From Alphaproteobacteria bacterium (GTDB taxonomy: Bacteria; Pseudomonadota; Alphaproteobacteria; CAAHEQ01; UBA3637), in assembly GCA_017453485.1 (NCBI GenBank), contig JAFTEW010000055.1:1-54104 (forward strand): a DNA stretch of 54,104 bases. Direction: 5' to 3'. Below are positions 1 through 54,104 of the stretch, piece after piece. The translations under genes and the position numbers were made by a program. Position 1 is the stretch's first letter. Every line of letters begins with the position of its first letter. Under the pieces are notes generated by a model. The model did no database searches and was not told the origin of the DNA. It saw only the letters and a list, made by a program, of their open reading frames with translations.

Positions 1-87
1 ATAAATCAAGGTTTAAAGTAAACATTTTTTTTCATTTTTTTGAAAATTTTTTATTTTATCGTTTTTGTTAATGATTTCAGAATGTAA

Positions 88-127
88 GAACGGATTTTGT
101 TCCAAATCCGTTCCTTTCGTTTTTCTT
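88..127 (+). terminator. Terminator-like hairpin, probably ending a gene left of the window
   Basis: Perfect 10-bp stem gaacggattt (88-97) / aaatccgttc (104-113) with a 6-nt loop, followed by a T-rich tract (ctttcgttttt). Confidence 0.45.
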
Positions 128-193
128 AATTTTTCAAAATTTCAGGGGGGGGACATAAACGTTGCTTTATGTCCTCTTTAACAACCCCGATGG

Positions 194-402
194 ATATTGA
201 TTTTGCATGTTTATGGATCCTGAAACGAGTTCAGGATGACACAGTGTGGTATGACGGCTACGTCCCCCCTCTGTCATGCCCGACCTGATCGGGCATCCAT
301 AGGAAAAGAAGACACTATGCCTAATGGATCCCCCGTCAAGCGAGGGATGACATATAGATTTTGCGTATCTGATGGATCCTCGCCTACGCAAGGATGACAA
401 AA
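194..402. repeat. Cluster of four 28-29-nt hairpin mini-repeats (MITE/REP-like), consensus ATGGATsC-N13-GGATGACA
   Basis: The units are 213-241, 272-300 (inverted orientation), 324-352 and 372-399. Each is an imperfect palindrome, for example atcctgaa-acgag-ttcaggat. Units 1 and 4 share a longer ~48-bp repeat (194-241 vs 352-399). The 77-aa ORF 167-400(-) simply translates these repeats. Confidence 0.8.
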
Positions 403-464
403 ATCTTATGTGCCTGAGGATATCCGGTTTAATTAAACCCGATAATGACTTTTGAAAACGGATT

Positions 465-8592: not shown

Positions 8593-8939
8593 AAGTCGGA
8601 CAGATGTTTTTAACTTTCGTTTAGTGATAAACATTACATATCGGGGGCGGCAAAAATGCCCCCCTTATTTATGCTGTTATTATATTCTTGCAATTCAATA
8701 ACATCTATGTTAAAACTCTTTTCAGGCGGAGTAGCGCCCGTCTGATGGTGTCAGAAGCCATACCAAAAGTGCTATGTATAAAGCAGTATTTATACGCTGT
8801 GCAACCTGTCCAAGGTTGGATGGCGGCAAAATAAAAACCGTTGTGCGGGCAAATATGTCGCACTACTTCTTTTGGTGTAGTTCTGAACATCCAGCCACTT
8901 ATGCGCTAAAGTGGCATTTATTTTAAAAGGAACGACAGA

Positions 8940-10232
8940 ATGACAAAAGATGTGAAACATCCTGAGATCGGACGGAGTATGGTAGAGATGTTGGGGACGC
9001 TGGCCATTATGGGGGTGCTCACCATCGGGGGAATAGCCGGCTATAACTATGCCATCACGAAATATCGGGCCAATACGCTGTTTACAGAAGCCAAAATGAA
9101 TGCCGTTCAAGTTGTCGGATTAGCATTGACCCACGGATTGCCGGAAGAATTTTCCTTAAACACAGATACTTACCATCTAAATTATGAAAAAGAATCCGAT
9201 ATCGGGTATGTTTTGTATGCTAATGACATAGATGCTGCTGTTTGCCGAATCGTTCAACGAAACCGGAAAGTATCTTGGGCGGAATTGGTCCTGATTAACG
9301 AAGGGCAAGGCTGTTTGGAAGCAGATAACCTGATTGAATTTTATATCAACACCCGGATGGATACGGAAACGACCAATCCAGATCGGGCGGATTTATGCGA
9401 ATCTGATGCGGATTGCGGGGAATGCGGGACCTGTCAATCCGGTGGTGTTTGCCTGTTTAAAAATGATGCCTGCACAGACCCCGCCAAACCTTACTGTAAT
9501 CACGGCACCTGCCAAAAATGCCGACCGGATTATATTGAACGCTATGGTGGCTGGGGATCGGGTGATATCGATTTGAAAGGTAATCTGACTTGCAGTAAAT
9601 GCCCGACCGATGCCGTTTACACCACCCCTGAACAGTGCGAAAAGTGCAATAAAATGACCCCCGGCGGATACTTTTCTGTTCAATGGCACCGCTCCTTTTT
9701 TAATGTGTGTATGACATGCGGTTATACGGGGGATAGCGGTCGTATTCCCACAACACCGGCCGAATGTCGCAAATGTTCCAACCGATGCTATTCTGAAAAA
9801 ACCGGGTATTGCTTTCCGCTATCCCAAAATATGGCGGACACCAATCATGACGGTATTTGTGACGAAAAGTGTCCCGACGATCAAATTGAATATACGGCTC
9901 TGTTCGGAAGTGGTGATGTTGACCTCAAAAGCGGGTGGAAATGTATTGCTTGTAATACAACCGGTATGTATACAACAGCGGAACAATGCCACAAGTGTCA
10001 ACAACAAAATCCCGGTCAATTTTACGCCGTCAAATATTGGGGCCGGAATTTTTTCAATTTGTGTCTGCCCTGTTCAATTGAAGCATCCATATATTCCACA
10101 ACCCGTGAAGAATGTGATCAGTGTGCCAACCGATATTTTTCGGACGGGTTATGCCGTGCCTGTCCGGAAAAAGATTCCGAAGCCTGGCATAACCTGACTG
10201 CCGATCAGCAGGAACAATGTACCCCCGATTAA
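8940..10232 (+). CDS. Prepilin-like N-terminus fused to a cysteine-rich modular domain (hypothetical surface or secreted protein)
   Basis: Leader MTKDVKHPEIG followed by RSMVEMLGTLAIMGVLTIGGIAGY, with Gly at -1, Glu at +5 and a ~20-residue hydrophobic helix. I count about 34 Cys, mostly in CxxC pairs. An internal duplication of ~105 aa spans roughly aa 191-295 and 307-407. Confidence 0.75.
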   Translation: MTKDVKHPEIGRSMVEMLGTLAIMGVLTIGGIAGYNYAITKYRANTLFTEAKMNAVQVVGLALTHGLPEEFSLNTDTYHLNYEKESDIGYVLYANDIDAAVCRIVQRNRKVSWAELVLINEGQGCLEADNLIEFYINTRMDTETTNPDRADLCESDADCGECGTCQSGGVCLFKNDACTDPAKPYCNHGTCQKCRPDYIERYGGWGSGDIDLKGNLTCSKCPTDAVYTTPEQCEKCNKMTPGGYFSVQWHRSFFNVCMTCGYTGDSGRIPTTPAECRKCSNRCYSEKTGYCFPLSQNMADTNHDGICDEKCPDDQIEYTALFGSGDVDLKSGWKCIACNTTGMYTTAEQCHKCQQQNPGQFYAVKYWGRNFFNLCLPCSIEASIYSTTREECDQCANRYFSDGLCRACPEKDSEAWHNLTADQQEQCTPD

Positions 10233-10308: not shown

Positions 10309-10337
10309 GAATCGGCAAAAGTACTTTTTGCCGATTC
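10309..10337. terminator. Bidirectional terminator hairpin between convergent genes
   Basis: Perfect 12-bp stem gaatcggcaaaa / ttttgccgattc with the 5-nt loop gtact, flanked by A/T runs on both sides. Confidence 0.6.
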
Positions 10338-10891: not shown

Positions 10892-12004
10892 CTAATATGT
10901 TTGTTGTGTCGGCATTGTTCCCGGCATAATCGGTTGGGGCATCGGCATATACATTGCATTTGGCGCATATACGGGCTGAGCCTGAATTTGACCTTGAACC
11001 TGATACTGTTGCGGTTGGCCCATATAGGGAACCGGAACCATTGACATTGACGGTGTCACATCAGGTTGAGCCGGAATACCGGCCGGTTGAAGCGCCTGAG
11101 CCGGTTGAGATTCTGTCGGTGCGACCATCGGTTGCATCGGCACGGGTTGTTGCGCCTGAATGGGGAGCATATTCGGCATCGGTTGAATCATCGGCGCTTG
11201 AAATGATGTTAATCCAGACAAAACAGACGGGCTAACCGCACCGGCCGGCGCCTGAATATAGACAGGTTGCTGTTGCACAAAAGCCGGTTGTTGTTGCATA
11301 ACGACCGGTTGGTGTTGGATGACGGTCGGTTGCCGTTGAACCGTTATGTCTTGTTGCATAACGACCGGCCGTCGAACAATAACGGGTTGTTGCATGATAA
11401 CCGGTTGTTCAACCGTCATGTTGCGTTGAATTGTCACCGGATATTGAACGGAAATCGGATATTGCCGCGTAATCGGGTATTGCACCTTGGCGGCGGATTC
11501 GATATAACGGGTATCAATTTGCGGCGGCATATTAACAGCTTGTGCCGGTTGAGGTTGGGTTTCCGATACAATTTCCGGCTTTGTTTCCTTCTTTTTTACT
11601 TTTTCACGAACGGAAATCGGAGCCTGTGTTTTAAAATGGTCATCGGAGGCAAATGTCGCATCTGTTCGTTCTGCTAACGGAGCCGCTTCATCCTCGTATG
11701 TCAGGACCAACGGTTTTTGCTTAACTTCCGGCCGTCCGGGACAACCCTCCGTGCAGGTAATACCGGGTTGATCGGCATTATCACGAGCCGGCAAACCAAC
11801 CTGAATATCCGTCAGCGTGACATCATTTGAAACGGTATCGCTGTATGAATCCGGCTGATTGGCAAAGGTCATCGGCTGAGTTTCCCCCATCGCATATGAC
11901 CAGTTAATATAATCAGACGGTGTGCCGTCTGCCACAGCATAGGCGCCCATAGAAAGGCAAACCGATAATCCCGATAAAAAAGCAACTGATAATTTTACAT
12001 TCAT
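10892..12004 (-). CDS. Secreted Pro/Gln/Val-rich repetitive protein (hypothetical)
   Basis: Signal peptide MNVKLSVAFLSGLSVCLSMGAYAVA. The C-terminal two thirds are short periodic repeats (QYPITR/QYPISV/QYPVTI, QQPVIVRR/PVVMQQ/QPVVMQQ/QPAFVQQ/QPVYIQ). Confidence 0.7.
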   Translation of the reverse strand: MNVKLSVAFLSGLSVCLSMGAYAVADGTPSDYINWSYAMGETQPMTFANQPDSYSDTVSNDVTLTDIQVGLPARDNADQPGITCTEGCPGRPEVKQKPLVLTYEDEAAPLAERTDATFASDDHFKTQAPISVREKVKKKETKPEIVSETQPQPAQAVNMPPQIDTRYIESAAKVQYPITRQYPISVQYPVTIQRNMTVEQPVIMQQPVIVRRPVVMQQDITVQRQPTVIQHQPVVMQQQPAFVQQQPVYIQAPAGAVSPSVLSGLTSFQAPMIQPMPNMLPIQAQQPVPMQPMVAPTESQPAQALQPAGIPAQPDVTPSMSMVPVPYMGQPQQYQVQGQIQAQPVYAPNAMYMPMPQPIMPGTMPTQQTY

Positions 12005-15071: not shown

Positions 15072-15543
15072 TCGGGCGGTGTTTTTCTTATGCCTTTTTA
15101 TCGGGGTCAGTGTTGCTGCGGCCGAGGTCGGAGAGTATGCATCGCTGAAAAAAAATAAGGTTAATTGGCGTGTTGGCCCCGGAGAAAAATACCCGATCCT
15201 TTGGATTTATCAAGAGCAGGGATATCCCGTCAAGATACTGGATACCTATGATGTTTGGCGTCAGATTCAAGAAGCCGATGGCACCATCGGTTGGGTTAAT
15301 AAAAAAATGTTAAGTGATCGACGGACGGTTTTGGTTCAGGAAGAAGGAATCCTGACGACTAAACCGGATGATCAATCCCCGACCGTAGCTGTCGTGGAAA
15401 CAGGAACAATCGGTCGGATTTTAAGATGTCCCGCAACCTATCGCCATTGTCTGTTGTCATTCAAATATCAGGATAAAGACATTAAGGGATGGTTCCCACG
15501 CTCTTTTATATGGGGGATTGCTCCCAATGAGGATATTGATTAA
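15058..15543 (+). CDS. SH3-like domain protein (DUF1058 family), secreted
   Basis: Signal peptide MMRLNRAVFFLCLFIGVSVAAA. KVNWRVGPGEKYPILWIYQEQGYPVKILDTYDVWRQIQEADGTIGWVNKKMLSDRRTVLV matches the alphaproteobacterial DUF1058 pattern. Confidence 0.78.
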   Translation: MMRLNRAVFFLCLFIGVSVAAAEVGEYASLKKNKVNWRVGPGEKYPILWIYQEQGYPVKILDTYDVWRQIQEADGTIGWVNKKMLSDRRTVLVQEEGILTTKPDDQSPTVAVVETGTIGRILRCPATYRHCLLSFKYQDKDIKGWFPRSFIWGIAPNEDID

Positions 15544-16805
15544 TCCGGTATCAATGCCCATTTTTTAAAATCGTCGCCGCGCGCTTCAAAATTCGGATAC
15601 AAATTATAACTGGGGGCTGCCGGAGAAAGGAGTATTGTTCCGCCGACCGGGGTAATATGTTGTGCGATACTGACGGCCGTTGGCATATCCGATGTTCGAA
15701 CAGTTTCAATGTGGTGGTTCTGTGCTTGATCGGCCAATCGTTTACCTGTATCCGGTAGGGTGATCAGTCTGATTTTTTCCCGATTCGCGGCCAGGTAATC
15801 AATCAAAATCGTATAGTCTTGTCCACGGTCCAATCCGCCGGCGATTAAAGTTATCGGTTGTCCGTGAGAAAGGGCTTTTAAGGCTGCAACTGCCGTTTCC
15901 GGGGTTGTGGATATACTATCGTCCACATAGGTTAGATTATCTTTACTCCCTATGGTTTGCAGGCGATGGGGAAGGGCTTGAAACGTATGGAATGCCTCTG
16001 CGCAATCCGCCGGAGATAATCCCAGCATTTGAATGACCGTTAAAACGGCGCAAGCATTTTCGGCATTATGTGTGCCGATTAAAGATAATTTTTGACGGGA
16101 AAACAAAGGAATATCACCGCTATAAAAAGTTTCTTTTTCCAAATGGATGCCGTTTGGCGTATTAAACCAAACGGTTGGAATTGAAATATCAAATTGATGT
16201 GTCTGTGAATCGGTGTCGTTCAGGACGGCTTGACAGCTTTGGGTAATCATATGAATCTTATCTGAATAGTAGCGTTCATGTGATCCGTGCCATTGCAAAT
16301 GTTCCGGATACAAATTGACCAAAACACCGATATCCGGTCGGCCGATCAGGTCTGCACACTGATAACTGGACAATTCGGCAACGACAAAATCAGCCGATGT
16401 GTCTGCCAATTCCAACAGGGGACGACCGATATTTCCCCCCAGTTCCACCGATTGCCCTAAATATTTTAATGTATGCGCCAGTAAGCTGGCGGTTGTGCTT
16501 TTCCCCTTTGTTCCCGTGACGGCAATAACGCGAGTCCTCGGATTTTTGTTAGCAAAAAATAAATTTGTGCCGGACGTGATGATGATGCCTTGTTTAAGGG
16601 CTGTTTGAATCTCGGGGCGATAAAGACTGACCCCGGGAGATTTTATAAGGATATCGCACCGATTGATATCATCCAAATTTGATTCGGATATCTCTAAAAC
16701 AGATGTGTCGGGGCAATGGTTTTGGAGGGCTTGTCGGGCGGCAATACCTTCTCGGCCCATCCCCCAAATGCCGATGGTTTTACCGGTTAAATTCGACCAA
16801 AACAT
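15540..16805 (-). CDS. murD: UDP-N-acetylmuramoyl-L-alanine--glutamate ligase (MurD, possibly the L-Glu-adding MurD2 type)
   Basis: 421-aa Mur ligase with a GMGREGIAA Rossmann N-terminus and P-loop VTGTKGKSTTASLL, followed by GGNIGRPLLE. It lies 15 kb from the dcw cluster and overlaps the upstream ORF by 26 nt. Confidence 0.88.
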   Translation of the reverse strand: MFWSNLTGKTIGIWGMGREGIAARQALQNHCPDTSVLEISESNLDDINRCDILIKSPGVSLYRPEIQTALKQGIIITSGTNLFFANKNPRTRVIAVTGTKGKSTTASLLAHTLKYLGQSVELGGNIGRPLLELADTSADFVVAELSSYQCADLIGRPDIGVLVNLYPEHLQWHGSHERYYSDKIHMITQSCQAVLNDTDSQTHQFDISIPTVWFNTPNGIHLEKETFYSGDIPLFSRQKLSLIGTHNAENACAVLTVIQMLGLSPADCAEAFHTFQALPHRLQTIGSKDNLTYVDDSISTTPETAVAALKALSHGQPITLIAGGLDRGQDYTILIDYLAANREKIRLITLPDTGKRLADQAQNHHIETVRTSDMPTAVSIAQHITPVGGTILLSPAAPSYNLYPNFEARGDDFKKWALIPD

Positions 16806-18123
16806 CGGAAATCTCCTGTGGTATTAAATGATTTGATGAAGGCTTAAATAAAGAGTCAGCCCGGACGGCAGGCAGGGCCGGAGCCAGTTGTCGAACGACC
16901 AAATCTTGTTGCCAATCGGGGTGTTGGGATAAATATATCAGTGCCCATCGGGATTCATCAATTTCTCCGACACACTCAAAGGGTTTATGTCCCGATAGCC
17001 CCAACAATTCCTGATAACCGGTGATTTGCTCGGCTTCGTTTAACGGATTTCGTCCCATAATCCGAATTAAAGTATCTCGTTTTATAAAGGGAGCCAATAT
17101 CAAAAAAACGAAACGACATTTGTCACACACACTGCACCACCGGTTCAGGCGCTGTGTCTCGTCTAATTTAAAGGCTTTATTACAACTGGTAAAAATCGGA
17201 AAATAATCGGCGCATCGTTCGGCAAACAGTTTGGCAATATGGACTTCGGACAATGGGCGTAGCAGTGAAAAATAACGAAAATCCGGCGTAATCGTTTGCG
17301 TCAGTTGATAAAAATCTCGTTCAAAATCAAAAGATTTACTGTATTGATGGTTAATATCCAAATCCCCCTGATGCAGGTTGCCGATATTGGCCGACCGTTC
17401 GCATGACATGATGACGTATCTTTTATCGTATAAAATAGCCGCTGCCCAAAGAATAAAGGCTAAGATACCGGTAATGGGAACATGCCCGTTATAAACGTTT
17501 TCCGATTTGTTCAGAGAGAGCAATAGCGGGTCAATTTGCCGTTTTAATACGAGGGATGGCAATCCCGATTGTTTCATACATTCCCGAATGGGACGTGGCT
17601 CTCCGACGGCAACGGTCATGGCCGGTAAATCCGTTTGCTTAATCAGTTCTGTCGTGACGCAGGAATCTTTTCCGCCCCCGATGGGAATAAAGGCGTTATA
17701 GGGCAAATTTAAATTAACACTTATTCGGGCGGCGGTTGATGCTGTCGGGAAATGGATCTTTCCTTGTAAATTTAAATGATTGCGAACGGCAAATTCACCC
17801 AATCCATTCAAGTAAAAACGATTAAAAAAAAGCGCTTCCGATTCAGTCAGACCACCCGTTTCAATGATTATTTTTTCGGGTAAAAATGCTTTGTAATAAC
17901 TAATCCCTGCAGCAATATGCAATAAGGCAAAAATTTGATTCAGGGCCTGCTTTTTTTTGGCAGACAAAGCAAACGGTCCGCCGGGAAATGTGACGGTTTC
18001 TGTCCATTCATACCGATCATCTGTCCCATATGTCAGGGATAAAACGCCGGTTTCGGGTAAAAATTTAACCGTTTTATAATAAAAAGCCTTGCACAAAATC
18101 TTTTTTCCTTTTAAAATACACAA
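16780..18123 (-). CDS. PP-loop/QueC-like ATP-utilising protein coupled to murD; candidate MurL (UDP-MurNAc-L-Ala-L-Glu epimerase)
   Basis: 447 aa with a PP-loop-like IPIGGGKDSCVT motif (compare SGGxDS) and a Cys cluster WCSVCDKCRF resembling the QueC zinc motif. Its stop overlaps the murD start, which implies co-translation. Confidence 0.45.
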   Translation of the reverse strand: MCILKGKKILCKAFYYKTVKFLPETGVLSLTYGTDDRYEWTETVTFPGGPFALSAKKKQALNQIFALLHIAAGISYYKAFLPEKIIIETGGLTESEALFFNRFYLNGLGEFAVRNHLNLQGKIHFPTASTAARISVNLNLPYNAFIPIGGGKDSCVTTELIKQTDLPAMTVAVGEPRPIRECMKQSGLPSLVLKRQIDPLLLSLNKSENVYNGHVPITGILAFILWAAAILYDKRYVIMSCERSANIGNLHQGDLDINHQYSKSFDFERDFYQLTQTITPDFRYFSLLRPLSEVHIAKLFAERCADYFPIFTSCNKAFKLDETQRLNRWCSVCDKCRFVFLILAPFIKRDTLIRIMGRNPLNEAEQITGYQELLGLSGHKPFECVGEIDESRWALIYLSQHPDWQQDLVVRQLAPALPAVRADSLFKPSSNHLIPQEISDVLVEFNR

Positions 18124-18174
18124 TCAGATAAGGCGCATTCTACACGCGTTTTTGTGATTTTGCAAGAGGCATCT

Positions 18175-18678
18175 ATGAAAAGGACATCCGTTCTGTCGGA
18201 TTTTATGTTGGTTTTACTTATTCTATCAATAGTGGCTGTGGGGTGTTTTGCCTTGCGGGATGTTTTGCGAACACCGACGGATTATTGGTATCTGGCCCGA
18301 GAACAAATTGCGGCCGAAAACTATCCGTTGGCGGCCCGGTATTTAACACGGGCCGCGGACAAAGGATTGCCCCAGGCGCAGTTTGCTCTGGCAACAATGT
18401 ATGATGTTGGTGATAAAATACCGGAAAATAAGGAACTGGCAAAAAAATATATGGAGCTGGCTGTTCGAAGTGATTATCCGCCGGCCCTGTATGCAATGGG
18501 GGTTTGGATGGAACGGGGATATTACGGCCACCCCGATATGGACAAGGTTGTCAACCTGTATCAACGGTCGGCCGAACGGGGATATGTTAATGCTATGAAA
18601 AGTTTAATTGTGCTTTATTCAACCGATAACCCGGAGGGTAAAGCTTATTGGTATCATGAATTGATGAAGGGGATTTAA
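18175..18678 (+). CDS. Sel1-repeat (TPR-like) protein with N-terminal membrane anchor
   Basis: TM/signal region VLSDFMLVLLILSIVAVGCFAL followed by Sel1 repeats (AADKGLPQAQFALATMYDVG; AVRSDYPPALYAMGVWMERG; SAERGYVNAMKSLIVLY). The ATG at 18175 is preferred over the GTG at 18154. Confidence 0.8.
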   Translation: MKRTSVLSDFMLVLLILSIVAVGCFALRDVLRTPTDYWYLAREQIAAENYPLAARYLTRAADKGLPQAQFALATMYDVGDKIPENKELAKKYMELAVRSDYPPALYAMGVWMERGYYGHPDMDKVVNLYQRSAERGYVNAMKSLIVLYSTDNPEGKAYWYHELMKGI

Positions 18679-18681
18679 TAC

Positions 18682-21225
18682 ATGAAGAATAAAGGAGAAA
18701 AAATGGGATTAAAATATAGAAAAGACTATGTAGCACCGCACTATCGGTTGCCAAAAACAGAATTGGATTTTACATTGGATTTAACCGACACGGTTGTCAA
18801 ATCCAAGCTGTCTTTTGCGGATTACAACATTCAAAAACCGCTGATCTTAAACGGTGAATATATGGAATTGACCGAGATTAAACTGGATGGTAAGGCATTA
18901 CCCGATTCGGATTATCGGGTGGATGAACATACGCTAACATTAAATCCGAACAAAAAATCTTTTGTTTTGGAAACAACAGTGCACATCAATCCGGAAGCCA
19001 ATACCCGCTTGTTTGGGCTGTATGCTTCGGATGGAATGCTGTGCACCCAAAATGAGCCTGAAGGGTTTCGTAGTATCACTTATTATCCCGATCATTCCGA
19101 TGTGCTCAGCCATTGGACGGTGACAATTCATGCCGATCGTCAAAAGTGGCCGGTATTATTGTCAAACGGGAATAAAATTAAGGATTCGGGCAATACGGTT
19201 GTTTTTGAAGATCCGTTTGCTAAGCCCAGTTATTTGTTTGCCTTGGTTGCCGGGGATTTAGACTCCATTCACGATACATTTACAACAAAATCTGGGAAAG
19301 TCGTGAAACTGGGACTTTATTGTGAGACCGGTAAAAAAGACAGACTTTATTGGGCAATGGAAGCTTTGAAAAAAGCGATGGCTTGGGATGAAAAACGGTT
19401 TGGGTTAGAGTATGACCTGAATTCATTTAATATCGTGGCTGTATCGCATTTTAATGCCGGGGCTATGGAAAACAAGTCATTGAATATTTATAATGATGCG
19501 GCATTGTTGGCATCGAAAGATACGGCTACGGACACGACATTTGAATATATTGAACATGTTGTCGGGCACGAGTATTTCCATAATTACAGTGGTGATCGTG
19601 TCACATTACGCAGTTGGTTTGAATTGTCCCTGAAAGAAGGCTTTACCGTCTATCGTGATGAAGAGTTCGGATATGATACACGGTCACGGGCCGTAGGACG
19701 GATTGACGATGTTGTGACTTTACGGACATTCCAGTATCCGGAGGATGACGGCCCTCTGGCCCATCCGGTGCGGCCGGATTCGTATCAGGAAATTGATAAT
19801 TTCTATACAACAACCATCTATGAAAAAGGGGCAGAAGTTATCCGGATGCAACAGGCGATCGTTGGGGATAAAGCCTTTCAAAAGGGGTGTGATATTTACT
19901 TTAAGCGTCATGACGGGCAAGCCGTTACCATTGATGATTTTGTTAAAGCAATAGAAGATGGTTCTGGTGTGGATTTGACGCAGTTTAAATTATGGTATTC
20001 AACACCCGGTCGTCCCAAAGTCAATGTGACGACAAAATGGGACAAGGGCGTGTTTACGGTTCACCTGAAACAGTCACATAAAACTTGTCCGAAACCGTTT
20101 GTCATTCCGCTTCATTACGGATTGGTCGGGAGCAACGGAAAAGATATCAAAACCGGAACGTTTATCCTGAAACAAAAAGAAGAAACATTTGAATTTAAAG
20201 GGCTGAAAGAAAAGCCGGTGCTATCCGTTAATCGGGCGTTTACGGCCCCCGTTGATGTTGAAATATCCTATACCAAACCGGAAAGGTTATTGTTGATGAC
20301 ATATGATTCCGATTTGTTTAATCGATATGATGTTGGTCAGCAATATGCGCTGGACAGCATGGTTGATATGGTGCATCAGAATCGAACGGAACCGGATATG
20401 GATGTAATTCGGGCTTTGGGGTCATATCTGTCGCAACCGAATTTGGATAAAGCCTTTTTGGCACGGGCAATCATTTTGCCGACAGAGGGTGATATGATCG
20501 GTCGTTTGGATATGGTTAATGTGGAAACAGTTAAGGCTGTTCGTCGTGTTATGCGTCAGGCGTTTGCCGATACTTATTGTGATGAATTAAAAGCCATTTA
20601 TGATAACAATCAAACACCCGGCCCATATTCACCGGATGCGGAGCCGGCGGCCAAACGTGCTTTAAAGAATGTGGCGTTGGGGTATTTGGCTTTGACAGAA
20701 CACAAAGATTTGGTTTGGCAACAATACCAAAAATCGGATAATTTGACGGATCGGATATCGGCCCTTAATATATTGGTCAATCAAAATTTACCGCATAAGG
20801 AAGAAGCCCTTGCCGATTTCTATCATCGGTATGACGGGGACGATTTGGTTTTGAATAAATGGTTTGTAATTCAGGCTATGGAACCGGTGGAAGAGACTTT
20901 GGATACGGTCAAAAAACTGTTGGATCATCCGGTCTTTGATTATAAGAATCCGAATAAAGTGCGGGCTCTGTTGGGTGCTTTCGGACGCAATTTGACTGCT
21001 TTTAACCGGGCCGACGGAGAGGGATATCGCTTCTATGCCGGACAATGCGCTTTACTGGATCGAATCAATCCGAAAATCACGTCGAATTTGTTGACTGCCT
21101 TTGCCAAATTTAAAAAATTTGATGTGGCCCATCAGGCGGCTGTTCGGGCGGCATTGAATGAGCTCTTGGCTTTGCCGACATTGTCGGTCAATGCTCGGGA
21201 AACGGTGGAACGTATTTTGGCTTAA
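18682..21225 (+). CDS. pepN: Aminopeptidase N
   Basis: 847 aa with GAMEN (NAGAMENKS) and the zinc motif HEYFHNYSGDRVT...WFELSLKEG. An alternative start is the ATG at 18703. Confidence 0.95.
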   Translation: MKNKGEKMGLKYRKDYVAPHYRLPKTELDFTLDLTDTVVKSKLSFADYNIQKPLILNGEYMELTEIKLDGKALPDSDYRVDEHTLTLNPNKKSFVLETTVHINPEANTRLFGLYASDGMLCTQNEPEGFRSITYYPDHSDVLSHWTVTIHADRQKWPVLLSNGNKIKDSGNTVVFEDPFAKPSYLFALVAGDLDSIHDTFTTKSGKVVKLGLYCETGKKDRLYWAMEALKKAMAWDEKRFGLEYDLNSFNIVAVSHFNAGAMENKSLNIYNDAALLASKDTATDTTFEYIEHVVGHEYFHNYSGDRVTLRSWFELSLKEGFTVYRDEEFGYDTRSRAVGRIDDVVTLRTFQYPEDDGPLAHPVRPDSYQEIDNFYTTTIYEKGAEVIRMQQAIVGDKAFQKGCDIYFKRHDGQAVTIDDFVKAIEDGSGVDLTQFKLWYSTPGRPKVNVTTKWDKGVFTVHLKQSHKTCPKPFVIPLHYGLVGSNGKDIKTGTFILKQKEETFEFKGLKEKPVLSVNRAFTAPVDVEISYTKPERLLLMTYDSDLFNRYDVGQQYALDSMVDMVHQNRTEPDMDVIRALGSYLSQPNLDKAFLARAIILPTEGDMIGRLDMVNVETVKAVRRVMRQAFADTYCDELKAIYDNNQTPGPYSPDAEPAAKRALKNVALGYLALTEHKDLVWQQYQKSDNLTDRISALNILVNQNLPHKEEALADFYHRYDGDDLVLNKWFVIQAMEPVEETLDTVKKLLDHPVFDYKNPNKVRALLGAFGRNLTAFNRADGEGYRFYAGQCALLDRINPKITSNLLTAFAKFKKFDVAHQAAVRAALNELLALPTLSVNARETVERILA

Positions 21226-21247
21226 TCACAGAAAGGAGAATCAAGAG

Positions 21248-21943
21248 ATGGAAAACGTTGAACAAGAAATTACAAAATTGAACGAATGGAATGCTCAGGG
21301 CCGGTTTGCCGAGGTTTTGGCCGAAACAAATACGGATTTGGCAACCATTACGGATGATAATATTGAAGAAGATGTTGCCTCCCTTTATGTGGTTCAGGGG
21401 AATGCTCTATACGGGCTCGGTCGTTTGGAAGAAGCGTTGACGGCTTATGCCAAAGCGATTGAGTTGGATACGTTTGATGTGCAGGCCCGGTGCAATTACG
21501 GATCTACTCTGTATTCGTTGGGGCGGTATGTGGATGCGTTAAATGCTTGTGATGCTGCAATTTTGACGGATGAGGATTTTGCTCCGTCTTATGTTAATGC
21601 AGCCCACTGTCTGGTGGCTTTAAAGCATGAAGAAGAAGCCGTTTATGCTTTGCAGCAGGCTTTCTCGCTGGAACCGGAAAATGCCGAGTTAGGCCGGGTC
21701 GTTGCCGATATGGCCGCAGATTTGGATGATTTTGAGGTTGCTTTGGATACCTACTTAAAGGTGGCGGCACTGCCGGATACAAAGGATGATGTTCAACAAG
21801 CCATTCATGATTTCTTTGTGAAATTTAAGTCCAATCCGGATGTGCCGCGTAATGATTGGATGAAAGGTGTTGACCAATGGCGTTCCGAATTTTCAAATAA
21901 TCCGGAAGTGTTGCGTCTGTCCGGAGAACTGATACGGAGTTGA
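21248..21943 (+). CDS. TPR-repeat protein
   Basis: RBS aaaggagaa lies upstream of the ATG at 21248. Repeated A..Y..AIELD / A...C.AAI / A...LQQAFSLEP TPR signatures. Confidence 0.75.
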   Translation: MENVEQEITKLNEWNAQGRFAEVLAETNTDLATITDDNIEEDVASLYVVQGNALYGLGRLEEALTAYAKAIELDTFDVQARCNYGSTLYSLGRYVDALNACDAAILTDEDFAPSYVNAAHCLVALKHEEEAVYALQQAFSLEPENAELGRVVADMAADLDDFEVALDTYLKVAALPDTKDDVQQAIHDFFVKFKSNPDVPRNDWMKGVDQWRSEFSNNPEVLRLSGELIRS

Positions 21944-31957: not shown

Positions 31958-33699
31958 TGCATCGTAAACGGGAAACATATTATTATGTCGGTGTTGAGAT
32001 TCCGTCTCGGGGATTGGATCGATATCGATGCCTGGATGTGGCGACTAAGGGTGTTTTAGCAACGGCAAAGTCGCGAACAAACCTGATTATGGCAGTTATT
32101 TTGTTGGCTTTTATGATCATTATCGGACGCCTTTATTTTTTGACTGTTGTGAATTACCAAGCCCGTAATTTTAAACCATCCGTTTTAAAAACAGATGTGG
32201 CTTTTGGGCGAAAAAATATTTTGGATCGGAACGGTATTGTGTTGGCGACCAATATCCCGACCAAGGATCTATCTGTCAATCCGCAAAAAATAAAAGATCC
32301 GGAACAAACGGCTCGGGCTTTGGTGCGTGCACTGCCGGATTTGAAATATGATGAAGTTTATGAAAAGTTGACCAGTTCCGCTAATTTTAAGTATATTAAA
32401 CGCAATATCAATATGAATGAATGGGAATCGGTTTTATGGGTCGGTAATCCGTATTTGGAAGAAGTTGATAATGAAAAAAGAGTTTATCCCCAGGGGCGAT
32501 TATTTGCGCATATCCTGGGCGGCGTCAATGTGGATAATATCGGCATTGCCGGTTTGGAAAAGGCCCATGAAGATGAATTGCAACAGGGGGATATTACCTT
32601 ATCATTGGATACGACCGTTCAGGGAATCGTTCGGCGTGTTTTGACAGAACGTATTCAAAAATATCAGGCTGTCGGCGGTTTCGGTATCGTGATGGATGTC
32701 AATAATGGGGAAGTGTTGGCACTGGTTTCCTTACCGGATTATGATCCGGAACAACCTGCGACACAGGCTACTATGTCGGATCGGTTTAATAAAGCAACGG
32801 TCGGGACGTATGAGTTCGGTTCTGTTTTCAAATTATTCAATACGGCAATGGCTTTGGAAAACGGGGATATTCGGCCGACGGATTCATTTGATGCAACCCG
32901 TAATTCTTTAAAAATCGGTAAAAAGATTATTGAAGATTTTAACGGCGGCGAAAACAGATCTTTATTGGTGCCGGAAATTTTAATGCATTCTTCTAATATC
33001 GGTTCTGCCCGGATAGCTTTGAAGGCCGGATGGCAAAAGCAAAAGGCCTTTTTTGAACGGTTAGGCTTTTATGATCAATTAGATATTGATTTGCCGGAAA
33101 AAGCTCGAACACAGGTCCCTAAACAATCCGTTTGGCCGGTCATTACATCGGCAACAGCGGCTTACGGCTATGGGATTTCCGTATCGGCATTACACGTGAT
33201 TGCTGCGGTCAGCGCGATTGCCAACGGAGGGTATTATCATACCCCGACTTTTATTAAAGGTGGGAATGACGGAAAGCCGGAAATTCAGGTTATCTCTCCG
33301 AACGTTTCCGAACAAATGCGTCATATGATGTGGGCGGTTATCAATTGGGATATTAAAAAGAATAATCCGGTCCGGCCCTATGCCGTCGGTGGTAAGACAG
33401 GAACGGCCGATATGATGGTGCAAGGTAAATATAACAAGAAAAGTTCTCGGACCAGTTTTGTTGGCGTTTTTCCGATGAATCGTCCCGAATATGCTGTCTT
33501 GGTCACCATTGAAGACCCTAAAAAAATAAAAGAGAACTGGTACTTTAATAATGCCGGTTGGACGGCAAAGCCGACCGGGGAAGAGATTATTGCCAAAATA
33601 GCTCCTTATTTGGGAGTTATGCCGCAGGAGCGGTGGGAGCAACCGGCCTATATTGAACGGGCCATTCAAGTCAGTCAGGAGCATAAAAAAAGAAAATGA
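31954..33699 (+). CDS. ftsI: Peptidoglycan D,D-transpeptidase FtsI (PBP3)
   Basis: TM anchor, PBP dimerisation domain and transpeptidase motifs SxxK (GSVFK), SxN (SSN) and KTG (GGKTGTA). Confidence 0.93.
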   Translation: MMHRKRETYYYVGVEIPSRGLDRYRCLDVATKGVLATAKSRTNLIMAVILLAFMIIIGRLYFLTVVNYQARNFKPSVLKTDVAFGRKNILDRNGIVLATNIPTKDLSVNPQKIKDPEQTARALVRALPDLKYDEVYEKLTSSANFKYIKRNINMNEWESVLWVGNPYLEEVDNEKRVYPQGRLFAHILGGVNVDNIGIAGLEKAHEDELQQGDITLSLDTTVQGIVRRVLTERIQKYQAVGGFGIVMDVNNGEVLALVSLPDYDPEQPATQATMSDRFNKATVGTYEFGSVFKLFNTAMALENGDIRPTDSFDATRNSLKIGKKIIEDFNGGENRSLLVPEILMHSSNIGSARIALKAGWQKQKAFFERLGFYDQLDIDLPEKARTQVPKQSVWPVITSATAAYGYGISVSALHVIAAVSAIANGGYYHTPTFIKGGNDGKPEIQVISPNVSEQMRHMMWAVINWDIKKNNPVRPYAVGGKTGTADMMVQGKYNKKSSRTSFVGVFPMNRPEYAVLVTIEDPKKIKENWYFNNAGWTAKPTGEEIIAKIAPYLGVMPQERWEQPAYIERAIQVSQEHKKRK

Positions 33700-48594: not shown

Positions 48595-49242
48595 CTATTT
48601 TAGCGGTATAAGTGGCAATCCGTAAAGTCGCAGATAGCCGGAATCAGGAACTAATTTAAACTCTTGTGGTGTGTCTCGGATAATGAATTTCATCCAATCG
48701 GGTAAATCAACATAGTGACGGATGAATTGGTTCAGACCTGTTGTTTGAAGAGTCAAAAAACCTTGATTTTCTTGCGTTCGGATATCTCCTTGAACAGAAA
48801 AACGAAATGAATCAATTTGTCCCGACAGTTGTTGAATATGCCACCGTTCATCGGAAAAATCGGCATTAACATTGATGGGATCGGTATCCGATGTCTGAAT
48901 ATGCACTTGAATCGGCCATTTCACCGGGATAGCGACAAAGGTGTGTGGAATTGTGACGGGGGTGTATCCCGCAGGATGAATGGTCAAGTTTTGAATGTCG
49001 GCGCAAATTTGAAACGAACAGTCAGCATGTCGAACGGATTCGGCCTGAACAACGGCAAAAGGACCGGATAAATCGGAAATCCATTCCGGTAATTTATGAA
49101 CGAATTGGTGATTTAATAAACGAATACCCCCCCATGCTGCCAAGCAGATAATAAAACAAACAGGTAAAACTATTTTAATGAAATGACGCATTTCAATCCT
49201 TTTCTCGGGCTTTATCATAAAGAAATTTTTTATTTTTTTCAA
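48595..49242 (-). CDS. Hypothetical membrane-anchored or periplasmic protein
   Basis: ORF with an N-terminal TM/signal helix (IKIVLPVCFIICLAAWGGI). An alternative start is the ATG at 49191. Its stop abuts the stop of the convergent DUF502 gene with no spacer. Confidence 0.5.
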   Translation of the reverse strand: MKKIKNFFMIKPEKRIEMRHFIKIVLPVCFIICLAAWGGIRLLNHQFVHKLPEWISDLSGPFAVVQAESVRHADCSFQICADIQNLTIHPAGYTPVTIPHTFVAIPVKWPIQVHIQTSDTDPINVNADFSDERWHIQQLSGQIDSFRFSVQGDIRTQENQGFLTLQTTGLNQFIRHYVDLPDWMKFIIRDTPQEFKLVPDSGYLRLYGLPLIPLK

Positions 49243-49283
49243 GCACCCTTAAATGGTTTTACCGCCGGAATGATAAAAAAGGC

Positions 49284-49312
49284 TTGACAATCCGATGAAA
49301 AAGGTGTAAAAA
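49284..49312 (+). promoter_or_regulatory. Sigma70-type promoter for tRNA-Pro: TTGACA, 17-nt spacer, TAAAAA
   Basis: The -35 is at 49284-49289 and the -10 at 49307-49312, ending 13 nt upstream of the mature tRNA 5' end. Confidence 0.5.
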
Positions 49313-49325
49313 GGCAACATCTTGT

Positions 49326-49402
49326 CGGAACGTGGCTCAGCCTGGTAGAGCACTACGTTCGGGACGTAGGGGTCGCTGGTTCGAATCCAGTCGTTCCGAC
49401 CA
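49326..49402 (+). tRNA. tRNA-Pro (anticodon CGG), CCA encoded
   Basis: Manual cloverleaf: acceptor cggaacg/cgttccg, D arm gctc-agcctggta-gagc, anticodon stem ctacg/cgtag with loop ttCGGga, T arm gctgg-ttcgaat-ccagt, discriminator A, then CCA. Confidence 0.92.
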
Positions 49403-49407
49403 ATTAT

Positions 49408-49445
49408 ATAACATAGTATGTGTATACCTACTATGTTATTTTTTT
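49408..49445 (+). terminator. Rho-independent terminator after tRNA-Pro
   Basis: 11-bp perfect stem ataacatagta / tactatgttat with a 10-nt loop, followed by a T7 run. Confidence 0.75.
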
Positions 49446-49619
49446 ACCCAAAACAATTTAATTATATTTTTCAATGAGTTAATGATGAGTTTGTGGCTGT
49501 TTTAGCGGTAATATGACGATACTTTTTTACCGTCCGAAGAAATATCTTGATTTTAAGATGGTTTTATTATATAATAACCAATGACCGTGAAGCCTCAATG
49601 CAAAAAGAAGGGAGACCCC

Positions 49620-50465: not shown

Positions 50466-50485
50466 TTATTTGCCAAGGAGGGAAA

Positions 50486-50872: not shown

Positions 50873-50920
50873 TCTGTTTGGGTCGTATCAAGCATAAAAG
50901 AGAAATTTCGAAACCCCAAA

Positions 50921-50955
50921 AGCCGGAAATAAAAGACTTATTCCCGGCTGTTTTG
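50921..50955. terminator. Bidirectional terminator hairpin between convergent genes
   Basis: Stem agccggaaat / attcccggct (one mismatch) with a 9-nt loop, then gttttg. A-rich on the other side. Confidence 0.5.
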
Positions 50956-50972
50956 CATTATTTAAAGAGAAG

Positions 50973-52226: not shown

Positions 52227-52273
52227 AATTTGTTTTTAAAATAGAATAAAATCCTCTTTTTGTTTCTTTTATA

Positions 52274-53086: not shown

Positions 53087-54104
53087 CTATTTACAAATGA
53101 CACCAGCCATACCAGAGTATCCGTCCGGTCTCCCACTGTAAATACCACCATTTGCCATACATTCTCCGCCCTGTCCCCAATAGGAATAATCATTTGCCGG
53201 ATTGTGACCATGTGGTAAAGCTGATATTTGCATTTTTATCGTCTGAAATTCAGAACAGTTCAGTAGCGATTTTCCGATAGCCTGACACCAACTTTGTGCG
53301 CCGTAATAGGATAAATATCCCCAGGTGCAGTTTTTACCGCCATCAGCCGGCCGACACCAAGAGCGCAAATCGGATGCCGAATTGAAGTAATAGGTTGTCC
53401 CGTTGATAGTTGCCGTCTTCGGATTGGCCTTTTCACAAATGTTCGGTGTTTTGGTCCCGCCGTAATTACAGAAATATCCCTCCGGACAGCCGCTGACGGA
53501 TGAACAGGATTGTCCCGTCGGTTTACATTGACCTTTGCCGTCACAGGTTCCGGCTTGTCCGGCGGACTCGCAAGGTGTTCCCGATGGCAGGAACGTATGT
53601 GTTTGATTGCCATTGGCATCTTCTTCACACGTCATACACGGTGATAGAGCACACGTTTGCGGTTCATCCTCCCCTTCACCGGATTCCGATTTCTTTGTCA
53701 GCGTATTACTGAACACAAAGGCGATTTTATTGGCTTCGCCTTGGTCACAGGAATCGGATTCACCGTTGATGGCAACGTCCTCCGGGACTTTCCAATCCAT
53801 ACCCTTAATCCGTTCACAAACTTCGTCATTCATATTTGATACGATAATGCCGAAAGCCCCGTCATCATATCGTGCCGTTTCTACGCCAAAGGCACCGCTG
53901 ATGGATAGGTTCCCATTCGCGTCTTTCCATTCCGGCAGGGTCAGGCTCCCTTGGGTCGTCAGTTCCGTGCTGGCCGTCACCGCCATCTGTGATACAGCCC
54001 CCAGAATTGTATTGGCATTGGATTTATTGATGGCATAGCGATACCCCGCTATTCCCCCGATGGTTAATACCCCCATGATGGCCAGAGTCCCCAACATCTC
54101 TACC
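53087..54104 (-). CDS. Second prepilin-like / cysteine-rich protein, paralogue of 8940-10232; its 5' end runs off the window
   Basis: Reading from the window edge, VEMLGTLAIMGVLTIGGIAGYRYAINK matches gene 8940 almost exactly. A similar small head domain follows (VCERIKGMDW...INGESDSC...IAFVFSN), then a different Cys/Gly-rich C-terminal region. Confidence 0.75.
   Translation of the reverse strand, partial: VEMLGTLAIMGVLTIGGIAGYRYAINKSNANTILGAVSQMAVTASTELTTQGSLTLPEWKDANGNLSISGAFGVETARYDDGAFGIIVSNMNDEVCERIKGMDWKVPEDVAINGESDSCDQGEANKIAFVFSNTLTKKSESGEGEDEPQTCALSPCMTCEEDANGNQTHTFLPSGTPCESAGQAGTCDGKGQCKPTGQSCSSVSGCPEGYFCNYGGTKTPNICEKANPKTATINGTTYYFNSASDLRSWCRPADGGKNCTWGYLSYYGAQSWCQAIGKSLLNCSEFQTIKMQISALPHGHNPANDYSYWGQGGECMANGGIYSGRPDGYSGMAGVICK

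Follow-up and report, generated by a model that had tools for sequence, protein, structure and literature searches.

Locus organisation and domain architecture

The window, i.e. the whole 54,104-nt stretch of DNA that was analysed, contains an ATG-initiated open reading frame that encodes a protein of 430 aa and lies between a glucokinase gene on one side and a DUF4167 gene on the other. An identical protein (P0001) has been called on an 83-kb ENA metagenome contig. The reading frame is preceded by a Shine-Dalgarno-like motif and followed by a terminator-like hairpin (Table 1), and a second terminator-like site is located at 8643-8663, 3' of the upstream glucokinase gene; the target gene appears to be a stand-alone transcription unit. 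In agreement with the original prediction, which had noted the absence of pil, gsp and tad genes, Pfam searches on the ORFs of the 54-kb window revealed no pilus machinery, and the 20.7 kb of its contig that were read were also devoid of it. Whole-protein scans of Pfam, NCBIfam and the PDB sequences gave no significant match for the target.

Table 1. Features of the target gene and of a related gene in the window
Feature	Coordinates	Strand	Basis
CDS of the 430-aa modular pilin-like protein	8940..10232 (stop codon included)	+	Translation; database counterpart
Shine-Dalgarno-like AAGGA, 8 nt 5' of the ATG	8927..8931	+	Read directly from the sequence
Putative leader peptide MTKDVKHPEIG (aa 1-11), Gly at -1	8940..8972	+	Conservation of G11; register with pilins
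alpha1N (aa 12-35), RSMVEMLGTLAIMGVLTIGGIAGY, Arg at +1, invariant Glu at +5	8973..9044	+	Alignment of homologues
Rest of the pilin-like module (aa 36-145): alpha1C, 4-5-stranded sheet, Cys pair	9045..9374	+	AF2; alignment
Invariant head Cys pair C102/C125	9243-9245 and 9312-9314	+	Invariant columns
Linker and small Cys-knot-like module (aa 149-195), ..LCESDADCGECGTCQSGGVC..	9384..9524	+	BLASTP against family members
Cys-rich module 1 (aa 186-291), GSGDIDLK loop, CxxC pairs	9495..9812	+	Alignment; colinear homologue P0121
Cys-rich module 2 (aa 301-405), a divergent copy of module 1	9840..10154	+	Alignment
Conserved C-terminal tail (aa 405-430), CRACPEKDSEAWHNLTADQQEQCTPD	10152..10229	+	Recurrence in relatives; DNA identity with P0002
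Terminator-like hairpin 3' of the target gene	10309..10337	+	Read from the sequence
Second family member, N-terminus cut by the window end (..VEMLGTLAIMGVLTIGGIAGYRYAINKSNAN)	53087..54104	-	blastn; translation

A probable prepilin-type N-terminus

Type IV pilins are recognised by a short hydrophilic leader ending in Gly or Ala, followed by about 21 mostly hydrophobic residues with a Glu at +5 (PMC8179133, PMC10191384). The target, which begins MTKDVKHPEIG/RSMVEMLGTLAIMGVLTIGGIAGY, possesses such a leader as well as the hydrophobic stretch with its Glu. In an alignment of 120 homologues, G11, R12, S13 and M14 are each identical in 119, and E16 (the +5 position), C102 and C125 in all of them; because of the near-invariance of G11-M14 and E16, the motif is not a product of chance. 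The end of the leader at Gly falls in one common register in every comparison with pilins. All ten PDB matches of the N-terminal profile were type IV pilins (E 0.03-2), hhalign aligned only alpha1N, in register (P = 0.0014), and E. coli GspG, GspH and GspJ used as queries on the loci matched mostly family members. The PilS model matched only two of 30 relatives (E >= 0.066).

The PF07963/TIGR02532 signature is absent from the target, these models being tools for detection which do not define a type IV pilin. The proposed comparison with pilin profiles thus gave a divided answer: 25 of 30 relatives matched Pfam N_methyl (PF07963) weakly (best E 0.005), whereas neither PF07963 nor TIGR02532 matched the target at E <= 10. 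With TIGR02532, relatives scored 10-13 bits against a cut-off of 16.3, and an operon-encoded major pilin of the lineage (see below) likewise stayed under it (13.0 bits vs 16.3). Since this pilin fails the same cut-off, and given the Arg at +1, the curated prepilin models under-call the lineage. Taken together, the comparisons support the assignment of the N-terminus to a class III (prepilin-type) signal followed by alpha1N, and we predict that a prepilin peptidase would remove the leader after G11.

A type IVb pilus operon in related genomes

On three human-gut contigs (L167, L172 and L173), we found an operon with the order TcpQ - Secretin - PilO - T2SSE - T2SSF - pilin - T2SSE. Its pilin, of 208-218 aa, matches the Pfam PilS (2e-16) and Bundlin (2e-11) models and the bundlin structure 1ZWT (E 4e-6), and starts with ..EQ[ST]G/RSMVEMLGVLAIIGVLS[IV]GGIAGY. 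An N-terminus of the form G/RSMVEMLG.LAI.GVL..GGIAGY is therefore carried by a bundlin/PilS-type major pilin on contigs of related gut Alphaproteobacteria. Over aa 6-61 of the target (56 residues), the two proteins are 52% identical (E 7e-16), which bears out the prepilin signal layout originally read from the sequence. The operon ATPase, the name of which refers to Proteobacteria bacterium CAG:495 and which is bfpD according to JGI, belongs to a cluster found in 3,021 indexed blocks of the sequence collection and on at least 1,000 contigs.

The machinery and the family were also found together. On MAG contig JAZKXP010000003.1 (L019), a modular family member lies about 5.4 kb from PilO (2e-55), secretin (6e-102) and TcpQ (5e-36) genes, and other contigs of this MAG encode Cys-rich family members; when MAG accessions were compared, none was common to the ATPase contigs and the family contigs. 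The target thus has its alpha1N in common with a bona fide major pilin of a lineage in which the machine is seen in relatives. A lack of any pilus machinery, which was to count against the original prediction, does not hold at the level of the clade because of this type IVb machine.

Neither a Peptidase_A24 homologue nor a membrane protein with the GxGD[VI]K motif was detected within 10 kb of the operon or in 1.82 Mb of related loci. The sensitivity of this search is doubtful, because the true genes are hardly picked up with the secretin and platform proteins of E. coli as queries: GspD, GspF and GspO perform poorly as probes on this system. GspE is a sensitive one, since TadA and TraJ ATPases in plasmids were recovered with it. 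With E. coli Gsp proteins as probes, no machinery was found in the first 1.1 Mb of family loci.

Pilin-like head and Cys-rich modules

The AF2 model of the head (pLDDT 84.6) has the lollipop topology, with a 54-residue alpha1 (helix 12-65) followed by a beta-sheet (strands 70-74, 79-84, 89-97, 116-119 and 130-137), so that the ~50-residue N-terminal helix and beta-sheet head of type IV pilins are both present in the predicted model. In the structural comparison foreseen by the original prediction, a pilin-like fold is thus predicted, and Foldseek returned no significant match for either the head, including among PDB pilins, or the Cys-rich part. The top Foldseek matches of the head, type III secretion chaperones (E ~0.02), were considered meaningless for a helix-plus-sheet model and discarded.

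The protein contains 34 Cys, of which 32 follow the head, and 11 CxxC motifs. The Cys-rich character of the C-terminal part is thus as first described, the figure of about 34 Cys after the head being slightly high because it is that of the whole protein, C102 and C125 included. The linker and Cys-knot-like module, common to many family members, is modelled with a pLDDT of 82-90 and gave weak, non-significant Foldseek matches to squash knottins (E ~1.2). The two Cys-rich modules which follow are 43.5% identical to each other, and their local alignment scores 231, where shuffled sequence scores 33 +/- 6. The two tandem modules of about 105 aa are thereby established, close to the positions first given; the duplication is visible in the protein and does not correspond to a recent DNA repeat. 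We rejected the 105-aa module as a widespread unit, as it was found only in P0121, a colinear homologue with the architecture of the target, and in P0122; the unit held in common is instead a shorter CxxC-x11-15-CxxC-x5-9-C-x4-5-C repeat. The modules of the target match only 15 proteins among 1.84 billion representatives. The C-terminal tail (pLDDT 87-94) recurs in P0002, P0003, P0005, P0006, P0066, P0007 and P0121.

The Cys-rich modules matched no known family in Pfam or the PDB. The best Pfam match of the target was TNFR_ELAPOR1_6th (E 0.0075, 16.6 bits vs a cut-off of 33.2), the Pfam VSP model did not match, and no Foldseek match of the C-terminal model went below E 1.2, those to knottins and to the Cys-rich domain of class C GPCRs being non-significant and only leads. 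The furin-like or VSP-like resemblance initially seen in the repeats hence finds no support in the Pfam, PDB and Foldseek searches. In P0121, the second Cys of both CxxC motifs has been lost together, in both modules. Such a loss in pairs fits disulfide partners and not a four-Cys zinc site; together with the topology, it suggests that the 32 C-terminal Cys would form disulfides in the periplasm, C218-C233 and C221-C236 being among the predicted pairs. The modules would then constitute a compact, probably protease-resistant scaffold that is almost without relatives.

A large family with a constant pilin module

With the small pilin as query, the family comprises at least 6,965 protein clusters; 541 close homologues of the target were retrieved, and at least 512 family loci occur in GTDB species representatives. 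The 80 family loci listed all come from gut MAGs, 79 of them titled Alphaproteobacteria bacterium. One MAG encodes at least 13 members, and family genes recur at about one per 40 kb. None of the approximately 240 family proteins listed comes with a precomputed Pfam domain; almost all lack a name or are called 'hypothetical'. Literature searches on the motif, on RF32 or CAG-495 and on pili revealed no account of the family, which is a very large and undescribed one of uncultured gut Alphaproteobacteria.

All members have the constant pilin module, followed by C-terminal modules which vary (CxxC repeats, lectin-like domains). Short pilin-only paralogues are also present, in tandem arrays. The genes stand singly among housekeeping genes, and only housekeeping genes were found in the neighbourhoods of the short pilin clusters and of P0002, P0114, P0139 and P0194. 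No canonical GFTLIE-type pilin was found in the family loci. The closest relative, P0002, is 93.8% identical in DNA to nt 25-575 of the target CDS and 88.8% identical over the last ~72 nt plus 27 nt downstream, whereas the middle ~650 nt are unrelated. Judged from these alignments, exchange appears to affect the middle cassette and to leave the two ends of the gene conserved.

Alternative explanations

Gly at -1 and Glu at +5, retained in 119 and 120 of the 120 homologues respectively, are needed only for cleavage and filament assembly. Their retention argues against a pilin-derived membrane anchor, no longer a filament subunit, with an uncleaved signal anchor as N-terminus and a Cys-rich module which would stay periplasmic or on the inner membrane, for instance as a sensor or binding protein that is never polymerised. 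We consider such an anchor unlikely, even though no prepilin peptidase was found in 1.82 Mb, the genes lie dispersed and at a distance from the machine, the N-terminus has an unusual Arg at +1 and stays below threshold with the curated models, and tens of copies per genome are far above any known pilus: the operon-encoded major pilin has the same alpha1N, tandem arrays of short pilin-only paralogues occur, and lectin-like and Cys-rich modules would be most sensible outside the cell. It is improbable that the protein is instead exported by Sec, its whole N-terminal segment serving as a long signal peptide peculiar to the family, which signal peptidase I would cleave behind the helix (N-Y-A/I in the target, S-Y-G/M or S-M-A/M in relatives) to give a soluble Cys-rich product. 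Conserved family-specific signal peptides are known from other systems, and most members in the alignment do have small residues at -1 and -3 after the hydrophobic stretch; but that stretch, of about 22 residues, contains the charged Glu, AF2 gives one continuous 54-residue helix packed on the sheet, K41, A44 and N45 beyond the putative cut are as strongly conserved as the helix, and the same segment is alpha1 of a bundlin/PilS-type pilin.

Two relatives are named 'type II secretion system protein' and 'FimT/FimU' by NCBI, and weak matches to the N-termini of GspG/H/J and XpsH were obtained, as would be expected if the protein were not a pilus subunit but a GspH/J/K-like pseudopilin of type II secretion. 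These matches are limited to the generic alpha1N, GspC, GspL and GspM have no meaningful homologue in the loci (best E 0.03-0.2), and the sole machinery found with this N-terminus is of type IVb (TcpQ, PilO PF06864, a bundlin/PilS pilin and a second ATPase), which makes a pseudopilin very improbable. Finally, in a cytoplasmic multi-zinc-ribbon protein, the CxxC...CxxC pairs would bind zinc as four-Cys knuckles kept as a unit, and the likeness of the N-terminus to pilins would be incidental. The matches pointing this way (RPB9, L37e, Nop10 and a 'zinc ribbon-containing protein', E 0.015-5) are all non-significant; given the N-terminal membrane helix, the domain lies outside the cytoplasm, P0121 has lost its Cys in pairs, one per CxxC, and P0130, a relative of the repeats, has an ordinary signal peptide. 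We therefore regard this possibility as hardly credible.

Proposed function and comparison with known systems

We conclude, with a probability of about 0.65, that the target belongs to the type IVb (bundle-forming / PilS-PilV) lineage and is a type IV pilin-like protein of modular build. It is best read as a modular adhesin that resembles type IVb minor pilins such as PilV, CofB and TcpB; a minor-pilin-type adhesin, one of the functions originally proposed, is thus the best-supported one, the adhesin function and the ligand being purely conjectural. Briefly, the short leader and hydrophobic alpha1N would place the protein in the inner membrane and leave its remainder in the periplasm, as its class III layout suggests; cleavage after Gly11 would leave Arg12 at +1 and Glu16 at +5, and the 32 C-terminal Cys would be oxidised to disulfides. 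The pilin module may then co-assemble into a type IVb pilus or prime its tip, as expected from an alpha1N which is the same as that of the bundlin-like major pilin of the clade. The pilus would be built by the BfpD-like ATPase, platform protein, PilO, TcpQ and secretin known from related genomes, and the slender Cys-rich module would be displayed as a ligand-binding, protease-resistant adhesin. The target gene would be one of tens of paralogues per genome that have the pilin module in common and display different modules, a hard-wired repertoire of alternative pilus adhesins to which the constant pilin module, the varied displayed module and the exchanged middle cassette point.

Modular pilins occur widely and in many forms (more than 1,200 proteins in 264 architectures; PMC8179133), so that a pilin anchor bearing an extra module is not the unrecognised architecture it was first taken for. 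Their detection relied on the InterPro IPR012902 signature and on extra domains already known. Like PilB (vWA) and PilC (lectin) of S. sanguinis, in which a functional module is grafted by a short linker on a small pilin module and so presented by the filament (PMC8179133), the target combines both kinds of module; its family differs in missing the prepilin signature (Arg at +1), in modules that match no Pfam or PDB family and in a far higher copy number per genome. CofB (ETEC CFA/III) and TcpB (V. cholerae TCP) are tip pilins that pass the secretin within the filament (PMC8179133), and they consist, like the target (head aa 1-145, linker, ~285 aa Cys-rich), of a pilin module, a linker and extra C-terminal domains. 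They are single-copy and operon-encoded, with beta-repeat and beta-sandwich domains, whereas the target belongs to a scattered multicopy family, lies outside any pilus operon and is Cys-rich.

PilV is the shufflon-switched minor pilin of the type IVb thin pili of IncI/IncI2 plasmids (R64, TP114) and is used in the gut; in this protein of ~430-470 aa, a constant N-terminal pilin part is joined to alternative C-terminal adhesin parts which set partner specificity (PMC9045228). The target set may be functionally comparable to it. Indeed, the 430 aa of the target comprise an N-terminal module that is constant and a C-terminal one that is swappable, and both the PilV system and the clade have a type IVb apparatus in which the major pilin is of the PilS type and which also includes PilO, a lipoprotein-type secretin, an ATPase and a platform protein. 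Differences are nevertheless marked: PilV is a single gene with invertible 3' segments, whereas the family consists of tens of separate full-length genes, chromosomal and scattered, with mosaic cassettes, and the variable part measures 69-113 aa in PilV against ~240 Cys-rich aa in the target. Sequence similarity to PilV extends nowhere beyond alpha1N, and searches of PDB sequences and Foldseek, head included, revealed no homology to CofB, TcpB or PilV; the likeness is architectural only.

As in EPEC BFP, the clade operon encodes assembly and retraction-type ATPases (like BfpD and BfpF) and its major pilin belongs to the Bundlin/PilS family, with which the target has the leader end and alpha1 in common. 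The operon differs from that of EPEC in having no BfpP-like peptidase, and the target in its smaller head, which matches neither the PilS nor the Bundlin model. With ~11% Cys, many CxxC and an extracytoplasmic location in a variable gene family of the gut lumen, the target also recalls Giardia VSP and furin/TNFR-like repeats, a functional analogy only, as no significant sequence or fold match was obtained.

A possible library of pilus adhesins

In the usual descriptions of type IVb pili, the number of minor pilins is one to three. More tentatively, and with some doubt on our part, we suggest that an uncultured gut lineage (CAG-495-like, genomes of ~1.9 Mb) might hold a library of tens of interchangeable pilus adhesins, in which a constant type IVb module with an unprecedented Arg+1/Glu+5 N-terminus would carry disulfide-rich or lectin-like cassettes shuffled by recombination between the conserved 5' and 3' ends. 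The prepilin peptidase on which such a library might depend could be unusual in its specificity or type and encoded apart from the operon. If so, the family would be the chromosomal equivalent, as a gene family, of shufflon or Giardia VSP variation; a few per cent of the genome would be devoted to pilus adhesins, and one pilus could attach to many partners (host glycans, microbes, protists) or evade immunity. Tens of modular pilin genes with one alpha1N in a small genome would represent an extreme functional diversification of a pilus and would amount to a library of adhesin modules provided by nature.

In human and animal guts the carriers are common; they have no cultured representative, and the family is for this reason a concrete lead to their mode of attachment and their partner. 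It also exposes a blind spot in annotation, as TIGR02532 and PF07963 miss an entire pilin system with Arg at +1.

Three family members are present on the contig of the target. One of them, at the far end of the window (Table 1), had been missed in the original prediction; it is 83% identical to nt 8981-9076 of the target by blastn and has the same pilin module, its C-terminal module consisting of a Cys-knot linker and a lectin-like domain.

The gene and its surroundings

The predicted open reading frame is present and encodes a protein (hereafter the target) that begins MTKDVKHPEIG/RSMVEMLGTLAIMGVLTIGGIAGY, the slash marking the predicted prepilin cut. With terminator-like hairpins on both sides (see table), the gene looks like a stand-alone unit. 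The original prediction placed about 34 cysteines after the pilin-like head; this number holds for the whole protein, of which the head contains C102 and C125 and the remainder the other 32, and there are 11 CxxC motifs. The window is a housekeeping region (transketolase, PtsP, glucokinase, GapR, TrcR, DUF4167, complete dcw cluster), in which GapR, TrcR and DUF4167 indicate an alphaproteobacterium. As also predicted, Pfam annotation of its ORFs found no pil, gsp or tad genes.

Features of the target gene and of related family members
Feature	Position	Strand	Remarks
Target CDS	8940-10232	+	430 aa
Shine-Dalgarno-like AAGGA	8 nt upstream of target start	+	read from sequence
Terminator-like hairpin before target gene	8643-8663		
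Terminator-like hairpin after target gene	10309-10337		
Second family member	53087-54104	-	cut by window end; pilin module like that of the target
Third family member	L001 (window's own 83-kb contig) 3-428	-	just upstream of window position 1; truncated at contig start
Short pilin-only arrays	L057 16016-18194; L087 (6 copies/20 kb); L039, L045, L075 (fetched loci)		family N-terminus and C-terminal Cys pair

Just downstream of the target, past the DUF4167 gene and on the opposite strand (10892-12004, -), is the gene of a 370-aa secreted protein that has no Pfam match; Pro, Gln, Val and Met are very abundant in it, and it contains degenerate repeats of the QQPV type. A 939-aa ORF of the dcw cluster (33696-36515, +) has two full Mur ligase domain sets and appears to be a MurE-MurF fusion, and a MurL-type epimerase (PF26299/PF26298) adjoins a Mur ligase gene (15540-18123, -), a pair that constitutes an alternative L-Glu-then-epimerise route to the peptidoglycan stem peptide. 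The stretch 48595-54104, which holds an S24/HTH repressor-like gene (52282-53055), the second family member and several ORFs without Pfam match, has a GC content of 0.41 versus ~0.45 and could be an island.

A constant N-terminal pilin module and the pilus operon of relatives

The database search returned 541 homologues, nearly all unnamed, from gut metagenomes and Alphaproteobacteria-labelled MAGs. Among 120 aligned homologues, E16 (+5), L21, G25, C102 and C125 are invariant, and conservation is 90% or more at G11 (-1), R12 (+1), S13, M14, M17, L18, G19 and further positions, with the N-terminal consensus [EQ]SG/RSMVEMLG[TV]LAI[IM]GVLSIGGIAGYxY[GA]M[DN]KYRAN. PF07963 and TIGR02532 did not match the target. 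Other comparisons gave weaker evidence, all of it in favour of a prepilin N-terminus and in one register: all ten PDB matches of the N-terminal profile were type IV pilins (G/RSMVEML aligned to G/FTLIELM), 25 of 30 relatives had weak N_methyl matches, hhalign against E. coli pseudopilins gave P = 0.0014, and among 1,211 ORFs the E. coli GspG, GspH and GspJ probes matched mostly family members. The AF2 model (pLDDT 84.6) has a helix at 12-65 (54 residues) and then a small sheet, as in the pilin 'lollipop' (PMC10191384); Foldseek with the head model did not confirm this fold.

Scanning metagenome contigs with the N-terminal profile added eight human-gut loci, in all of which a family pilin lies between two GspE-like ATPases. 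Pfam annotation of the loci L167, L172 and L173 gave an operon of an unknown protein (572 aa in L172 and L173; a 314-aa ORF in L167), TcpQ (PF10671), Secretin, PilO (PF06864), a coiled-coil protein, a T2SSE ATPase, a T2SSF platform protein, a PilS-like protein (197 aa), a pilin (208-218 aa) and a second T2SSE ATPase. This pilin, which begins MKNLYKNEQSG/RSMVEMLGVLAIIGVLSIGGIAGYSKAM, matches PilS (2e-16) and Bundlin (2e-11) in Pfam and the bundlin structure 1ZWT (4e-6), and the target is 52% identical to it across residues 6-61 (E 7e-16). The GRSMVEML N-terminus is therefore a class III signal plus alpha1N (the hydrophobic N-terminal helix half) of a type IVb BFP/PilS-like pilus system. The prepilin claim is thus sustained by the alpha1N shared with the operon pilin, whereas the curated prepilin models do not back it; indeed, this bona fide pilin itself reaches only 13.0 bits against the TIGR02532 cut-off of 16.3, which accounts for the family being overlooked in annotation.

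For the operon ATPase, one name derives from 'Proteobacteria bacterium CAG:495' and the JGI name is bfpD; it was counted on at least 1,000 contigs, the longest being 1.95 Mb. Probed with the clade's own operon proteins, contig JAZKXP010000003.1 (L019) contains PilO (2e-55), secretin (6e-102) and TcpQ (5e-36) 5.4 kb away from a 352-aa modular family member, and Cys-rich members as well as a short pilin occur on further contigs of this MAG, so that one genome contains both the machine and the modular family. On one side (1-2786) the L172 operon adjoins TrbC/VirB2-like genes and the gene of a 1,212-aa protein whose C-terminal membrane segment is TrbC-like. On the other (15801-21683) are genes for a redoxin, for a trio of VWA, PP2C and Ser/Thr kinase proteins and for a Fic protein; the region could be an island linked to conjugation or host interaction.

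The most likely reading of the target is a modular type IVb minor-pilin-like adhesin, one of the possibilities originally suggested. An uncleaved membrane anchor, which we consider unlikely, would suit the failure to find a prepilin peptidase, either within 10 kb of the operon or in 1.82 Mb of fetched related DNA (phmmer with GspO; GxGD[VI]K motif search). However, this system is so divergent that E. coli probes detect it poorly (GspD scored the true secretin only at E 0.0045) and the sample is about one genome-equivalent spread across many genomes, so that this absence is a caveat and no refutation. A signal peptidase I substrate is very improbable, and so is a T2SS pseudopilin, to which the Gsp comparisons could point.

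Cysteine-rich modules and mosaic structure

The predicted tandem duplication is genuine and old: residues 186-291 and 301-405 are 43.5% identical in protein alignment (local score 231 versus 33 +/- 6 for shuffles), and no underlying DNA repeat was found. The Cys-rich part gave no match in Pfam, NCBIfam or PDB sequence searches. Its AF2 model is of moderate confidence (mean pLDDT 68; 75-94 for linker module, module 1 and tail; first half of module 2 poor) and gave no significant Foldseek match; the best weak ones, squash knottins, probably reflect the CESDADCGECGTCQSGGVC element. Exhaustive HMMER of residues 186-430 against 1.84 billion representatives found only 15 proteins: the homologue P0121 has the two-module architecture and tail of the target, P0122 matches module 2 (query residues 108-215), and the remainder share only a shorter CxxC-x11-15-CxxC-x5-9-C-x4-5-C unit. 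In some proteins bearing this unit an ordinary signal peptide replaces the pilin module, so the CxxC repeat is an independent extracytoplasmic module.

In each module of P0121, both CxxC motifs have lost their second Cys together, which fits two parallel disulfides (C218-C233, C221-C236) and argues against zinc ribbons. We therefore rejected that identity, for which the matches were weak (RPB9, E 0.015), and a cytoplasmic zinc-ribbon protein is extremely improbable. An acidic G-S-G-D-x-D-L-K loop, conserved in both modules (GSGDIDLK, 9555-9578; GSGDVDLK, 9906-9929) and also present in P0121 and P0122 (GSGDYDL, ADYDL, SSDYDLK), could be a metal- or ligand-binding site.

The closest relative, P0002, has a different gene neighbourhood. 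Its CDS is 93.8% identical to that of the target over nt 25-575 and 88.8% over the final ~72 nt plus 27 nt downstream, and the ~650-nt middle, which codes for the two modules, is unrelated. Likewise, a subfamily made up of P0002, P0003, P0005-P0007, P0066 and P0121 keeps head, linker and ..LT.EQQ..CTP tail around differing middles, a pattern characteristic of cassettes swapped between conserved ends.

An undescribed, very large family

The constant carrier module would enter the bundlin-type pilus of the clade and display the variable disulfide-rich module. A pilin anchor with an extra module, originally taken for an unrecognised architecture, is a concept already covered by modular pilins (PMC8179133) and type IVb minor pilins, namely PilV, whose variable C-terminal domain is associated with a shufflon (PMC9045228), and CofB/TcpB, which like the target have extra C-terminal domains. 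The target would work similarly, yet by sequence it is a member of none of them. What is new is the Arg at +1, the Cys-rich modules, the dispersed genes outside the operon and the scale, which is roughly tens of genes per ~1.9 Mb genome (extrapolated, and possibly inflated by clustering). This undescribed family matters mainly for its size, its mosaicism and the annotation blind spot.

Beyond the ~145-residue head the sequences are wholly divergent and include CxxC repeat arrays (P0016, P0023), lectin-like domains (P0043, P0114) and Gly/Tyr/Asn repeats (P0080). Three members lie on the window's own contig (the target, one at the contig start, one at the window end), the last with a Cys-knot-like linker and a lectin-like module (..TINGTTYYFNSASDLRSWC..GAQSWCQAIGKSLL..) comparable to P0043 and P0114. 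GTDB species representatives hold at least 512 confirmed loci; the 80 retained, which belong to 32 gut MAGs (ruminant, human and rabbit), contain 105 family ORFs (at least 13 in a single MAG), with additional copies in the flanks at ~1 per 40 kb. Many loci sit at contig ends, suggesting that short-read assemblies break at the conserved 5' region. Pilin-only members (120-151 aa) form tandem arrays of up to 6 copies per 20 kb, and a pilin-only query matched at least 6,965 protein clusters; the short paralogues of the arrays may be alternative filament subunits, separate from the 218-aa bundlin-like pilin.

Ankyrin-repeat proteins adjoin pilin clusters at two unrelated loci (L087 12639-14345; L090 11988-13436), a hint of interaction with eukaryotic cells. 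Finally, a Cas9-Cas1-Cas2-like block lies beside two family genes at L061 4516-10897, on a contig assigned in binning to Candidatus Gastranaerophilales; this label, the sole non-alphaproteobacterial one among the 80 loci, is probably a binning error.
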